This document shows, in pieces, positions 3,183-50,830 of a stretch of DNA of 50,830 nucleotides (positions are counted from its first letter, which is position 1; each line of letters opens with the position of its first letter). The DNA comes from a virus (lineage: Duplodnaviria > Caudoviricetes): the IMG/VR virus record IMGVR_UViG_3300037521_000133, positions 1 through 50,830 of that record; one strand, 5' to 3'. The position numbers were made by a program, and so were the translations under genes. The notes under the pieces were generated by a model. It saw nothing but the letters and a program-made list of their open reading frames with translations, was not told the origin of the DNA and made no database searches.

Positions 3183-3662
3183 ATGAACAAGAAATTAATA
3201 TTAGACGCATGTTGTAGTGGTCGAATGTTTTGGTTTGACAAAGAACATCCAAATGTTACTTACATGGATATTCGAAAAGAGTCAGCTGGTTTTATTCCAG
3301 AACAGCCACTATTTACAATTGCCCCTGACGTTGTTGCCGACTTTACAAATATGCCATTTTTAGACAGCAGCTTTAAAATGGTTGTATTTGATCCACCGCA
3401 TGCAAAAATTGGATTAACAGGAATTCTAGGAAAGAAGTACGGAACTTTACCGACAGATTGGGAATCCATGTTAAAAGATGGTTTTTCTGAGTGCTGGAGA
3501 GTCTTAGAAGATTTCGGGGTGTTAATATTCAAATGGAACAGTAAAACGCTTCCATTGTCACGCATAAGCCATACGTTCCCTTCTAATCCTTTGTTTGGGC
3601 ATACGACAGCAAAGAGCGGAAGTACTATATGGGTAACTTTCATGAAAATACCTACCTTGTAA
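3183..3662 (+). CDS. Small phage SAM-dependent (DNA) methyltransferase
   Basis: ILDACCSGRMFWFDK motif I-like; VVFDPPH catalytic-like motif; LIFKW. Confidence 0.8.
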   Translation: MNKKLILDACCSGRMFWFDKEHPNVTYMDIRKESAGFIPEQPLFTIAPDVVADFTNMPFLDSSFKMVVFDPPHAKIGLTGILGKKYGTLPTDWESMLKDGFSECWRVLEDFGVLIFKWNSKTLPLSRISHTFPSNPLFGHTTAKSGSTIWVTFMKIPTL

Positions 3663-3670
3663 AAAAAACC

Positions 3671-3931
3671 ATGTCGATCAAAACGAAAATCACAGACTGC
3701 AATATAGGCGAGAACTACTATCAGCTTAAATTGGTAAGCGACCACAAGAAGGTTAATGAACACGCCAAAGAGTGGGAGCAACGCCAAATAGACTCTTACA
3801 CGGTAGTTGTTGAAGAAAAGACGTATGTTATTCAGAAGTGTTTTAAACAGTCTAACATTCAATCTAGGGCTACTGAGCTTTCGAGTGAAGATGTGACGGA
3901 TGAGATTAAAGCGATTTTGGGAATTGTTTAA
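3671..3931 (+). CDS. Hypothetical protein
   Basis: ORF continues the operon; ATG at 3671 follows an A-rich tract. Confidence 0.6.
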   Translation: MSIKTKITDCNIGENYYQLKLVSDHKKVNEHAKEWEQRQIDSYTVVVEEKTYVIQKCFKQSNIQSRATELSSEDVTDEIKAILGIV

Positions 3932-3981
3932 TGTGTATATTTGGGATGGCACTTTTGCCACATACATAAATATATACATAC

Positions 3982-4275
3982 ATGTACACACTAAGAAGAG
4001 TAACCTCTACGGGGGTTGCAATGAACCATTCGTTAGGAAATGAATACACGTTTATCGGTCGAGCGTATTCATACGAAGAATTCAAAAGAACGTTCAAAGA
4101 GTATTTCGACAAGGATCACGTTGCAGATTTGGACAAAAAAAGCGATAAGGAAACAAAGAATGTTTTTGGTTTCGTTGCTGGTAGAGGTGGTTCTTACATT
4201 CAACCGCTTTATAGCAATCAAACAAACTTTATCGTTACAGAAAACGGTAGAACGCTGGAGAGATTGAAAATTTAA
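3982..4275 (+). CDS. Hypothetical protein
   Basis: 97 aa ORF; canonical TATATTTG box upstream at ~3936. Confidence 0.65.
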   Translation: MYTLRRVTSTGVAMNHSLGNEYTFIGRAYSYEEFKRTFKEYFDKDHVADLDKKSDKETKNVFGFVAGRGGSYIQPLYSNQTNFIVTENGRTLERLKI

Positions 4276-4289
4276 TTACAGTTAAAACA

Positions 4290-4328
4290 AAGAAAGCCCT
4301 GCTATTTGCTTAGTGGGGCTTTTTCTTT
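4290..4328. terminator. Bidirectional terminator between convergent operons
   Basis: AAGAAAGCCCTGCTA/TAGTGGGGCTTTTTCTT hairpin with A and T tails. Confidence 0.7.
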
Positions 4329-5097: not shown

Positions 5098-5388
5098 TTA
5101 ATGGGTTGATGGTTCGGTTACTTCGTATTCAAATGTTCGTTCATCAGTCTTTTCGAATTTCGTGAAATAACTTGTAAAGTGAGACGACATGGTGTCCTCC
5201 TTTTTAATCAATTCTTTTCGTTTAGCTTCTGATATTGACACCCTCAAGAAGCCAGTGCAAAATGATTTTATCACATGGTCACTATAATCAACCTCTGAGT
5301 TGTTCACTATTCGGTAACGAAAATAACTGTCTCCGTACGCTCTTCTTTGTCCCGATTCTAAGACTTCTACATCAAACTTGTATTCCAT
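5098..5388 (-). CDS. Hypothetical protein
   Basis: ATG at 5388 follows leader D in TTATTATG context. Confidence 0.7.
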   Translation of the reverse strand: MEYKFDVEVLESGQRRAYGDSYFRYRIVNNSEVDYSDHVIKSFCTGFLRVSISEAKRKELIKKEDTMSSHFTSYFTKFEKTDERTFEYEVTEPSTH

Positions 5389-5567: not shown

Positions 5568-6230
5568 ATGAAAGAATCAGTTAAAAAACTTCAAACAATA
5601 TTAGTTGAACAGGGATACGACCTTGGAGCCTATGGAATAAACAAAGACGGAATAGATGGAAGTGCAGGAAAGCTAACTCGTGATGCTGCTTTTCATTGGG
5701 CTAAAAAGACAACCGAAGCGTTAGGACTTCGCCATTGTCACAACAATATGGTTGAATTGAGAATGTCGGGGGAGTTCACTGATAGGTTTTCGGATCTAAA
5801 CTTGATCATTTCCACAAACAAATGCGTGGCTATAATTCCTTGGACAACGAAAGCTGGTCGATATTGGGTGAATAATCCTTTAACCGTAGGAGGCATTACA
5901 GGAACGGGGGTTGTAAAGGAGGGGCAAATGCTCGATTCTTACATTTTCCACGACTCAGGTAAACGCAAGTGGGGTAACAGGGGGTATTTTAAACAAGTTA
6001 AGCCGATCAACGTTTACAGGGACGGAAACAAAGATAACACTCTCGACAAGGATGTTGTTAAAGTTGCACCGTCATGGTACGGATTTCAAATTCATCCGAT
6101 GGGCAAAGGGTATAGAATATGGAATTGGAGTTCTGGATGTCGAGGTTGTTCAAAAGCACTTTGGGAGCAGTACATTCTACGTTATTTCAAGAACGGTCAG
6201 GTAATCTCACCTATCATACTTGAAATTTAA
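5568..6230 (+). CDS. Cell-wall enzyme: peptidoglycan-binding domain plus L,D-transpeptidase-like (His/Cys) domain; putative endolysin
   Basis: VKKLQTILVEQGY...DGIDGSAGKLTRDA resembles PG_binding_1; IH-x-WSSGC resembles the YkuD catalytic motif; YRDGNKD. Confidence 0.65.
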   Translation: MKESVKKLQTILVEQGYDLGAYGINKDGIDGSAGKLTRDAAFHWAKKTTEALGLRHCHNNMVELRMSGEFTDRFSDLNLIISTNKCVAIIPWTTKAGRYWVNNPLTVGGITGTGVVKEGQMLDSYIFHDSGKRKWGNRGYFKQVKPINVYRDGNKDNTLDKDVVKVAPSWYGFQIHPMGKGYRIWNWSSGCRGCSKALWEQYILRYFKNGQVISPIILEI

Positions 6231-6231
6231 C

Positions 6232-6330
6232 TACATTCGTAATTCGAAATGTTAATTGTCACTCCAGTGATATTTTCGTTTTGGTTCTTTGGTAGAACAT
6301 AAAAACCCTCGATTCATTCGGGGGTTTTTT
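6232..6330 (+). ncRNA. Candidate antisense small RNA (own promoter box and terminator)
   Basis: TACATTCG at 6232-6239; 6273-6294 is complementary to 6405-6427 and 1015-1037; terminator at 6301-6330. Confidence 0.55.
6301..6330 (+). terminator. Intrinsic terminator
   Basis: AAAAACCCTCGA-TTCAT-TCGGGGGTTTTTT. Confidence 0.8.
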
Positions 6331-6341
6331 ATTGAATCTCT

Positions 6342-6427
6342 GTAAATTTTCCTGTTTTATTATATTTTTTCCTGTTTATTGGAAATTAATGTGTATGTTT
6401 GAAGTACCAAAAGAAACAAAATGAAAA
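6342..6427 (+). promoter_or_regulatory. Duplicated early promoter module, copy 2
   Basis: Near-identical to 952-1037; -7 box TATGTTTG at 6394-6401. Confidence 0.8.
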
Positions 6428-6861
6428 AATTAAGAATCACAACAGGTGCTATCGAAGTAGAAGGAAGCACAGAAAAACAGTTAAAAATCAAAAGCGTTGA
6501 TGAAAAAAGAACAATCGCTTACATTCCGAGTTTGAATCCAGACGCTGAAGGTAATGTTGAGTTATTCGTTGATGCTCTCAATGTGGCTAATAAATACGAC
6601 TACACTCCATCCATGCTAATGGAGGAAAACAAAGTATTACAGGATAATGCAAAGGACACTTTCGAGGCTATGCAAGAAGTTCTACAATCAGATTTAGCAT
6701 TATCTGAGATTGTTTCCCAACGTAAGGTGTTCCTTTTCCATTTAAAAGAAGCTAGAGCAAGACTTATCGTAAATAATTCTGACGGTTTGGACGGTGTATA
6801 CAATGAGAATTGTGCCGATTCATCTTTTATCATACTCCTAGACACTTTAATTAATCCGTAG
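6421..6861 (+). CDS. Hypothetical early protein
   Basis: First ORF behind the duplicated promoter. Confidence 0.7.
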   Translation: MKKLRITTGAIEVEGSTEKQLKIKSVDEKRTIAYIPSLNPDAEGNVELFVDALNVANKYDYTPSMLMEENKVLQDNAKDTFEAMQEVLQSDLALSEIVSQRKVFLFHLKEARARLIVNNSDGLDGVYNENCADSSFIILLDTLINP

Positions 6862-10908: not shown

Positions 10909-11156
10909 TGTCGAAGCTGAAAGCAGTCAAGCACCTAGTAATCGAAATGGAGTTTCGGGATATGAGAGACTTCGATACGGCTATGGAGCAAATAAGAAAG
11001 CAAGTGCGAACTGGAGTCCAAGAATCAAAGCAAGTTCAGGATCATGTACGCTTTGAATATGGCATGTGCTACTTACAGGAATTCGATTGCAGAATAGAGA
11101 ATATTAACGGGGTTGAACATATTGTTATCCCATCAAAAATGAAAAGTTATGAGTAG
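10908..11156 (+). CDS. Hypothetical protein
   Basis: Start/stop overlaps with both neighbours. Confidence 0.65.
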   Translation: MSKLKAVKHLVIEMEFRDMRDFDTAMEQIRKQVRTGVQESKQVQDHVRFEYGMCYLQEFDCRIENINGVEHIVIPSKMKSYE

Positions 11157-11517
11157 AGAAAATAAATACAGAGCGTGGGATAGTAAGTACGAAAAGATGT
11201 ATTATTCGCATGGTGAAAATCCAAGAGTTAATTTGTTTCACGGGAAATGGGAAATAGATTTAGAAGGTGACAATGGCGACACTATTGGAACGGTTGAATG
11301 TGACGAAAAAACCTATCCACTAATGGAGTACATTGGATTAAAAGACAAGAACGGTGTTGAAATCTGTGAAGGTGATGTAGTTTTTGTTCCATACAATTAC
11401 ATAGGAAATCAGGTCGTCAGTTTTAACAAGGGAAAATATAATATTAGTAGTTACAATATTTCAAAGCTTAAAATAGTCGGCAACATTCACCAAGACCCTA
11501 AACTCCTAAAACAATGA
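11149..11517 (+). CDS. yopX: YopX family protein (paralog 2)
   Basis: RENKYRAWD, MEYIGLKDKNGVEICEGDV, IVGNIHQDPKLL. Confidence 0.9.
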   Translation: MSRENKYRAWDSKYEKMYYSHGENPRVNLFHGKWEIDLEGDNGDTIGTVECDEKTYPLMEYIGLKDKNGVEICEGDVVFVPYNYIGNQVVSFNKGKYNISSYNISKLKIVGNIHQDPKLLKQ

Positions 11518-13302: not shown

Positions 13303-13327
13303 TTTGGAATTATCGAATTGTAATCAG

Positions 13328-13446
13328 TATATTGCGGTATCATAAAGTGGCTGGAAATCACAAATTTTTTATTGAGAGTAACCTGTATCAGAATGCCATT
13401 CCAGCGGCTACTGGTATAGGACTCTCAACGTTTAAAACATTTCATT
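13328..13446 (+). promoter_or_regulatory. Promoter plus kissing-loop leader, copy B (replication operon)
   Basis: TATATTGC; AAGTGG-CTGGAAA-TCACAAA; stem TTGAGAGT..CCTGTATCAG-AATGCC-ATTCCAGC-GGCTA-CTGGTATAGG-ACTCTCAA. Confidence 0.75.
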
Positions 13447-13881
13447 ATGAATAGAGAGGTTAAGTTTCGTGGAAAGCAAACATACGGTGGCTGGATTTAC
13501 GGTTATCTTTTTAAAGACATTCGTTCAAGGGGAGCGTTGGCATACATTATTAAAGCGGGATTTGTTCCAGCGGTTTCAATGCCTGTATCAAGATTTATTG
13601 AAGTCGATATTAAAACTATTGGACAGTTCACAGGATTAAAGGATAAAAACAACGTAGAGATTTACGAAGGTGATTATTTGGTAATAACTGGCGCAACAAT
13701 TAACGAATGGGACTTTGAAGGTGAGGTAGTATTTATTGACGGTACATTCTGCTTAAAATCTAAAAATCAACCTAAAAATAACACACATACTGAATGTGTA
13801 AAGATTTGGAATGATGGATCACACGACCATTACAGCCTAGAAATTATTGAATCATTTGAAATGGAGGTAAAAAAAGTGTGA
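13447..13881 (+). CDS. yopX: YopX family protein (paralog 3)
   Basis: [32 protein letters not shown]. Confidence 0.9.
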
Positions 13882-27900: not shown

Positions 27901-27916
27901 AATTGAATATTATTAG

Positions 27917-28041
27917 TATATTGCGGTATCTGAAGTGGCTTGCAAATCACAAAGATCTTAATTTTGAAACCCTTATACTGGAATGCCATGCAAGCGGCTA
28001 CTATATCTAGTGTAGGGGTTTTGACACGTAAAACAAGTATT
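27917..28041 (+). promoter_or_regulatory. Promoter plus kissing-loop leader, copy C
   Basis: TATATTGC; AAGTGG-CTTGCAAA-TCACAAA; stem AAACCCTTATACTGGA-ATGCC-ATGCAAGC-GGCTAC..TCTAGTGTAGGGGTTT. Confidence 0.75.
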
Positions 28042-50427: not shown

Positions 50428-50723
50428 GAAACGTTAACTTTTGGGAAGACTTCGGAATACACATTGAGATAATACTAGCAGGTGTACTTGGTGGTTTATT
50501 ATCTCTCGAAGATAAAAAGGGTCTTTCTACATGGGAGAAAATCGGTGTATTTATGTCAGGAGGTGTTATCAGTAACTATTTGACACCTATCATAGTAGAC
50601 TGGACAGGAATCGGACAAAATTACACGTATGGTTTAGCGTTTCTTCTTGGTTATACAGGATTAACAGGAGTCAAAATTCTTGTACTTTATATTCATAGGA
50701 AGTTTCTCAAGAAAAAAGATTAA
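50424..50723 (+). CDS. Putative holin
   Basis: Three TM segments (LAGVLGGLLS; SNYLTP; AFLLGYTG), basic tail, end of late operon. Confidence 0.7.
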   Translation: MRNVNFWEDFGIHIEIILAGVLGGLLSLEDKKGLSTWEKIGVFMSGGVISNYLTPIIVDWTGIGQNYTYGLAFLLGYTGLTGVKILVLYIHRKFLKKKD

Positions 50724-50830
50724 CTAAATTATCCTATCTTTACGGTGTGTCTGGAAGCACAAATAAGAACTTTACAAATTCCCTCGATTAAGTGGTCTTC
50801 CAGACGCTTGGTTGGGGGTTTTGTGTTTAA
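50713..50830. repeat. Terminal direct repeat, right copy
   Basis: Identical to 1-118. Confidence 0.95.

Follow-up and report, generated by a model that had tools for sequence, protein, structure and literature searches.

A segment in the 3' untranslated region of a phage lysin-like gene is complementary to the leader and start codon of the next gene: a possible cis lock on terminator read-through RNA

We analysed positions 6232-6330 of a phage genome of 50,830 bp (the window, meaning the whole stretch of DNA under study) and conclude, judging from the sequence, that they are the 3' UTR and intrinsic terminator of the lysin-like gene in front of them and not a separate sRNA gene. Within this 3' UTR, a U/G-rich stretch (the left arm) is complementary to the leader and start codon of the gene that follows, orf 6421 (the right arm), and as a local inverted repeat this arrangement is unusual. 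We tentatively favour, with a probability of about 0.35, the reading that the repeat acts in cis: on RNA that has read through the terminator, the left arm would hide the leader and AUG of orf 6421, as modelled folds suggest. A free-standing sRNA acting in trans is unlikely. The features to which the text refers are the following.

5568-6230, + strand: lysin-like gene, 220 aa, stop codon at 6228-6230 (from the open reading frame, homologues and a structure model)
6231-6301, + strand: 3' UTR of the lysin-like gene, 71 nt, with two weak predicted hairpins
6232-6239, + strand: TACATTCG, earlier taken for a promoter-like box and judged here to be no promoter
6273-6294, + strand: left arm (anti-leader), TTTTCGTTTTGGTTCTTTGGTA, U/G-rich, 22 nt
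6302-6330, + strand: intrinsic terminator, 12-bp stem (7 G/C-rich and 5 A-U pairs), 5-nt loop and T run
6317-6433, + strand: cassette copy 2, with two TTTTCCTGTTT boxes (6347 and 6367), a 15-nt leader and ATGAAAAAA
6394-6401, + strand: -7 box of cassette copy 2, TATGTTTG, an exact TAnnTTTG, with a predicted start at 6406
6405-6427, + strand: right arm (target 1), from the predicted -1/+1 through AUG+4 of orf 6421
6421-6861, + strand: orf 6421, 146 aa, the gene behind cassette copy 2
927-1043, + strand: cassette copy 1, with -7 box TAAGTTTG at 1004-1011, a predicted start at 1016 and a 15-nt leader
1015-1037, + strand: target 2, from the predicted start through AUG+4 of orf 1031, behind cassette copy 1
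1031-1477, + strand: orf 1031, 148 aa, phrog_10841, the gene behind cassette copy 1

The genome is complete (classed as having direct terminal repeats, 100% complete) and ends in an exact terminal direct repeat of 118 bp (1-118 and 50713-50830); its G+C content is 37% and the + strand carries nearly all genes. Searches of the genome gave no tRNA gene and no match to an Rfam family, and serine (PF00239) and tyrosine (PF00589) recombinases are absent from it, while control genomes scored positive. Since the genome is complete and has no integrase, the phage is probably virulent. Its expression signals are, by their sequence, of the Bacteroidota type: a Shine-Dalgarno-like word is found at only 4 of the 83 starts, A is over-represented at positions -13 to -10 and -3 relative to these starts, and an exact TAnnTTTG lies 20-22 nt 5' of four intergenic ATGs (boxes at 1004, 6394, 24932 and 27959). 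In Flavobacterium psychrophilum the TAnnTTTG box occupies -12 to -5 (in the available part of PMC9723704), and this spacing sets all transcription starts given here, which are thus predicted and not mapped. A sigma-70 promoter scan was discarded as uninformative for host signals of the Bacteroidota type.

The protein encoded at 5568-6230 has 33 homologues (best identity 83%), one of which bears the source name Salibacteraceae bacterium, and His176 and Cys191 are invariant among them. Its structure model (pLDDT 88.8) suggests an N-terminal helical, peptidoglycan-binding-like part and a YkuD-like domain of the L,D-transpeptidase fold; the best Foldseek matches of the model are L,D-transpeptidases (4lpq, E 5.8e-5). 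Pfam gave no match for this protein, and its PHROGs match is phrog_3000, a family without assigned function. In several relatives, small membrane or lipoprotein-like genes, judged by eye, come after the lysin homologue. We consider the label 'lysin-like' reasonable despite the silent Pfam search, in view of these downstream genes and of the modelled resemblance to peptidoglycan-binding and L,D-transpeptidase folds; the YkuD-like fold would make the protein an unusual type of endolysin. The surroundings of the gene were also searched for. No match was obtained by blastn and tblastn against cultured phages, no relative by scans of IMG/VR with single proteins (the lysin-like one, those of orf 6421 and orf 1031, and one of 450 aa), and no match by a pattern search for the cassette core. 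Profile scans yielded 160 loci at 53% identity or less, with differing downstream genes, and the combination of terminator, cassette and arms occurs in none of the relatives at these loci.

From the stop codon of the lysin-like gene to the T run there are 95 nt, a distance that lies between 45 and 272 nt for six other intergenic + strand terminators. The initial annotation had described a strong terminator, and a hairpin with a T run is indeed present at 6302-6330; by its anatomy it would be common to the upstream gene and to any RNA derived from the 3' UTR, in agreement with the fallback offered there, that the unit is the 3' UTR of the lysin transcript. The 3' UTR is predicted to fold into hairpin 1 (6245-6283) and hairpin 2 (6284-6298, loop UUGGU at 6289-6293) with -15.4 kcal/mol (z -2.8; 6 of 200 shuffles equal or better), and the whole 106-nt RNA including the terminator reaches -31.7 kcal/mol (z -5.1). 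In the predicted fold of this terminated RNA, most of the left arm is base-paired in the local hairpins. The promoter-like box on which the sRNA proposal relied did not hold up: in TACATTCG the TTTG core of the Bacteroidota -7 consensus (TAnnTTTG) is disrupted, the form that it takes, TAnnTTCG, has 39 matches where chance alone gives an expected 28.8, and no exact TAnnTTTG occurs on the + strand between 3936 and 6394. The 3' UTR also contains a hydrophobic frame of 17 codons (MLIVTPVIFSFWFFGRT, 6250-6303, + strand), whose ATG at 6250 lies within the stem of hairpin 1 and whose TAA at 6301-6303 abuts the terminator stem.

Cassette copy 2 follows directly on the terminator of the lysin-like gene. 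It is a duplicate of cassette copy 1, with 88% identity across 117 nt (927-1043 and 6317-6433), and each copy has two TTTTCCTGTTT boxes, an exact -7 box, a short leader and ATGAAAAAA. The terminator stems differ between the copies, and the proteins encoded behind them, orf 1031 and orf 6421, are unrelated; Pfam, PHROGs and the ESM Atlas gave no function for either. Cassette copy 1 has no upstream anti-leader of its own. In both cassettes the TTTTCCTGTTT boxes are paired (947-991 and 6337-6381), 20 nt from start to start. At up to 2 mismatches the genome holds 10 matches to TTTTCCTGTTT, against 1.94 expected, and the boxes might bind a regulator or serve as upstream promoter elements; a search of IMG/VR for the pattern of two such boxes matched unrelated tandem repeats only. 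An identical copy of the phage is contained in contigs from a marine-sediment metagenome run. These public contigs break within both cassette copies (952-981 and 6371), as is expected for a repeat in de Bruijn assembly. From a second metagenome run, fragments covering 5779-5929 and 6034-6184 were recovered with 2 differences per 151 nt, and 6246-6466 was uncovered.

The left arm pairs with each target through 20 Watson-Crick pairs and one G-U pair, with one mismatch and one bulged target base, so that the 22-nt pairing with both leaders and start codons reported in the initial annotation is reproduced together with its G-U, mismatch and bulge. At the DNA level, the reverse complement of 6273-6294 is 2 substitutions and 1 indel away from 6405-6427 and likewise from 1015-1037, one of the two substitutions being the G-U of the RNA. 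At 6405-6427 there is in addition a weak extension, in which 6295-6300 pairs with 6395-6400 across a 4-nt gap and the helix reaches the untranscribed -7 box (ATGTT). Pairing of the start region that runs into an untranscribed box can matter in cis only.

As a local inverted repeat, the pair of arms stands out in the window. No second inverted repeat in the 50.8 kb has arms of 22 nt that differ by up to 3 edits and lie 3-250 nt apart. Genome-wide, no other antisense near-copy of either leader was found at up to 4 edits, and none within 3 edits for the other 81 leaders; among 575 composition-matched shuffles of target 1, antisense matches were found for none and sense matches for 3. An upstream anti-leader is present in 1 of the 83 genes, and when the upstream 250 nt of each gene were shuffled, any anti-leader among all 83 genes appeared in 1 of 1872 rounds, a statistic that was devised after the repeat had been seen. 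We also used an untuned local alignment of the start region (-30 to +10) with the upstream 250 nt, in which orf 6421 scores 15.0 and the next gene 11.5; this score was reached in 48 of 4853 shuffle rounds, giving a family-wise p of about 0.01. Scaling this test to all intergenic sequence, with proximity ignored, we estimate p at about 0.3. The signal is thus carried by the nearness of the arms, since the match without proximity is not significant, and this unusual proximity favours an action in cis or a local origin over a trans regulator. Among 1255 genes of related loci (the 160 loci around lysin homologues), none has an anti-leader partner.

By energy, the trans interaction is not above background. 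The initial annotation had expected both leaders to rank top compared with shuffled controls, and only the first half of this expectation was borne out. Among the 83 start regions the two leaders take the first two places, both by duplex energy (-21.3 and -20.6; next -18.6, mean -10.4) and by accessibility-corrected ddG (-15.9 and -9.6; next -7.6), but control RNAs, whether shuffled, random or natural, do equally well. A value of -21.3 on some start region was attained by 26 of 250 mononucleotide shuffles of the arm and by 28 of 400 random 31-mers; a ddG of -15.9 was attained by 25 of 61 dinucleotide shuffles of the RNA body, which lose the native hairpins and are thereby favoured in the comparison, and by 25 of 59 random 93-mers, and six natural 3' UTR-plus-terminator RNAs gave -10.1 to -15.6. 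Equally good pairing at unrelated sites, named at the outset as what would speak against a regulator, was found in part: in a genome-wide scan about 7 other, unrelated loci pair better with 6273-6294.

The cis reading starts from the position of the arms, which bracket the terminator and the promoter of cassette copy 2, so that both would be carried by a read-through RNA. On such an RNA, a long-range helix would bury the leader and start codon of orf 6421 and there would be no translation from it; the helix may also be cut as double-stranded RNA. In contrast, RNA made from the cassette's own promoter (predicted +1 at 6406) would carry the right arm only, leaving the leader free and A-rich, as translation of the Bacteroidota type, without a Shine-Dalgarno sequence, would require. 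All three steps, read-through past the terminator, formation of the helix in the cell and the block of translation by it, are inferences. Predicted folds are consistent with this scheme. The arm-arm pairing probability is 0.90 in each of the three folded contexts (6231-6460, 6200-6500 and 6100-6560), and the 230-nt RNA folds with a z of -3.66, none of 200 shuffles being as good. In the read-through fold the terminator and promoter region lie in the enclosed loop, and six further pairs join 6295-6300 to the -7 box. The mean unpaired probability of the orf 6421 leader through AUG+4 is 0.14 in the read-through RNA versus 0.95 in RNA from the predicted start, while for cassette copy 1, which has no partner arm, the corresponding values are 0.72 and 0.95. 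The boundaries agree as well: the predicted +1 at 6406 falls on the right arm's first base, and the left arm has ended well before it, at 6294-6300.

Several observations count against a cis lock. Cassette copy 1 shares the promoter and leader yet has no cis partner, and the left arm is, in sequence, equally close to target 2, which a purely cis role would not require. The local hairpins that hold most of the arm are predicted to form first, and read-through may be rare, since a strong terminator separates the arms. The architecture is in no relative at the 160 loci, none of which is close enough for covariation.

The initial annotation had proposed an action in trans. The 3' end of the terminated lysin mRNA, a fragment of it or a transcript of its own would block both cassette leaders late in infection, and one RNA would serve both cassettes, including copy 1 with its lack of a cis partner. 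The top ranks of the two leaders by duplex energy and by ddG, the equal distance of the arm from both targets and the loop UUGGU of hairpin 2, which faces the 5'-terminal ACCAA of both mRNAs, are in line with this, and there are precedents in the long A/U-rich pairing of Bacteroides GibS (PMC7366714) and in the known phage antisense RNAs OOP, sar and c4 (PMC12197685), as described in the available parts of these sources. We nevertheless hold it to be unlikely, given the energies of the four control sets and of the six other 3' UTR-plus-terminator RNAs, the burial of most of the arm inside the RNA itself and the generic, A-rich nature of the targeted leaders; moreover, it offers no reason for the short distance of 111 nt between the arm and one of its targets. 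The stricter version in the initial annotation, a free-standing sRNA gene, is set aside, having no credible promoter, a target pairing at background level and a terminator that is the upstream gene's. Both actions might be combined in one dual anti-leader, the 3' tail of the lysis gene locking the adjacent promoter unit in cis and titrating both 15-nt leaders in trans. We consider this decidedly improbable; if true, it would be an RNA-only shut-off of one promoter class, with no phage protein, in a Bacteroidota phage setting without Shine-Dalgarno sequences or Hfq and on a mobile promoter cassette present in two copies.

A neutral origin is nearly as probable as the cis lock: the left arm would be a relic, left when the leader was copied by a local inverted duplication or a template switch, or the likeness would be a coincidence (1 in 100) in A/T-rich spacer sequence, with no RNA function in either case. 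Pairing energies at background level, the roughly 7 better-pairing sites, a 3' UTR length that is ordinary for the genome, an arrangement seen in none of the relatives and a match that is not significant once proximity is ignored (estimated p ~0.3) all fit such an origin, as does the continuation of the similarity into the -7 box, which is expected of copied DNA. Chance, however, is countered by the family-wise p of about 0.01, and the right arm coincides with the stretch that runs from the predicted +1 to AUG+4; all contexts folded gave a helix of high predicted stability, and phage genomes would seldom keep a useless spacer. The arms could also work as DNA, as recombination or protein-binding sites, for instance of an invertible terminator-promoter segment. 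Invertible promoters are common in Bacteroidota, and the inverted arms do flank a 110-bp segment bearing a promoter, but the complete phage genome has no serine or tyrosine recombinase (a host enzyme is possible), the arms are imperfect and the right one contains a start codon. Contigs of the identical phage show no inversion joints, a weak argument in that contigs drop rare variants. We give this explanation a very slim chance, and the same holds for a coding role of the U-rich stretch 6250-6303, as a 17-residue hydrophobic, lysis-associated micro-protein or a translation-coupled control of the terminator. The frame is open from ATG 6250 to TAA 6301-6303, as read by eye, and it adjoins the lysin-like gene much as small membrane proteins, again by eye, follow those of relatives; against this, an open frame of 17 codons will arise by chance in T-rich sequence, its ATG is inside the stem of hairpin 1, and the downstream genes of relatives are unrelated and much longer.

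The closest parallel to the cis lock is the occlusion of start regions in T4, where the start regions of genes e, soc, 49 and I-TevI are sequestered on longer transcripts, and the 5' strand is missing from transcripts that begin at a nearby upstream promoter (in the available part of PMC3014915). As far as that part describes the T4 genes, the likeness is that the start region is paired to a segment farther upstream on the RNA, here in predicted folds only, and that the start codon is separated from this 5' strand by a promoter of the gene's own, here a predicted one, so that translation would be confined to promoter-proximal transcripts. Unlike in T4, the loop is about 110 nt long and contains a complete intrinsic terminator and a promoter, the target is an A-rich leader without Shine-Dalgarno sequence and not a Shine-Dalgarno site, and the presumed timing is reversed, with the transcript of a lysis gene entering a unit with a sigma-A-type promoter. 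In the retroregulation of lambda int, sib works through RNase III on the upstream gene. The common element is a structure that is complete only on RNA reading through past a terminator and that alters the fate of that RNA, whereas the effect predicted here is on the downstream start region.

Phage antisense RNAs that act on phage mRNAs include c4 of P1/P7, sar of P22 and OOP of lambda (in the available part of PMC12197685). Within what that part covers, the putative RNA studied here shares with them its shortness, its terminator and its complementarity to an mRNA, or a start region, encoded by the phage itself. It differs from all three in having no recognisable promoter, from OOP and sar in that those lie opposite their targets and are fully complementary, and from c4 in that the latter, an RNA with defined loops, serves immunity in a temperate phage, whereas the present phage has no integrase. 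For Bacteroides, the accessible portion of PMC7366714 describes GibS, whose long A/U-rich pairing spans start codons with neither Hfq nor ProQ involved, and 21 candidate sRNAs derived from UTRs. Such pairing over a start codon is predicted here too, in the same setting of a phylum that has neither chaperone, and an RNA derived from the 3' UTR would likewise share the parental terminator; by that account, however, the GibS seed is single-stranded and conserved with validated targets, while the arm is mostly paired, unconserved and predicted. Finally, a composite terminator-promoter unit recurs before unrelated genes in the window, as do the promoter-early stem-loop (PeSL) cassettes of T4-like phages (available parts of PMC4122927 and PMC2839356). 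So far as those parts tell, the differences from PeSL are that there are two copies only, that their stem-loops differ in sequence and that the signals are of the Bacteroidota type.

To our knowledge, gene regulation in marine Bacteroidota phages is almost unmapped. Hosts in the Bacteroidota do not initiate translation by way of Shine-Dalgarno sequences and have none of the usual RNA chaperones; translation would for this reason depend on unstructured A-rich leaders, so that one complementary segment would make a cheap and effective switch. If the cis lock is true, it would be a clean Bacteroidota example of a promoter unit insulated from upstream read-through and a handle for the design of reporters; if it is false, the case shows that calling sRNA targets by pairing energy is uninformative for A-rich leaders such as these.

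Other repeated elements were seen in the window. A second intergenic cassette is present in three copies (13323-13415 and 27912-28000 on the + strand, about 5516-5430 on the - strand), with the motif order AGTATATTGCGGTATC ... AAATCACAAAG ... GGAATGCCA and a mean column identity of 74%. The copy at 27912 has an exact TAATTTTG box 22 nt 5' of the ATG at 27988, and the minus-strand copy lies upstream of the gene 5098-5388; this cassette is probably a second promoter class. Three YopX-family paralogues are encoded on the + strand (1555-1968, 11149-11517 and 13447-13881), the first two of which share a 45-nt stretch at 80% identity. Within 3183-4275, the greedy gene call chose a minus-strand ORF (3260-3979); the three co-directional + strand ORFs 3183-3662, 3629-3931 and 3982-4275, after which comes a terminator (T run at 4320), seem the more likely genes.
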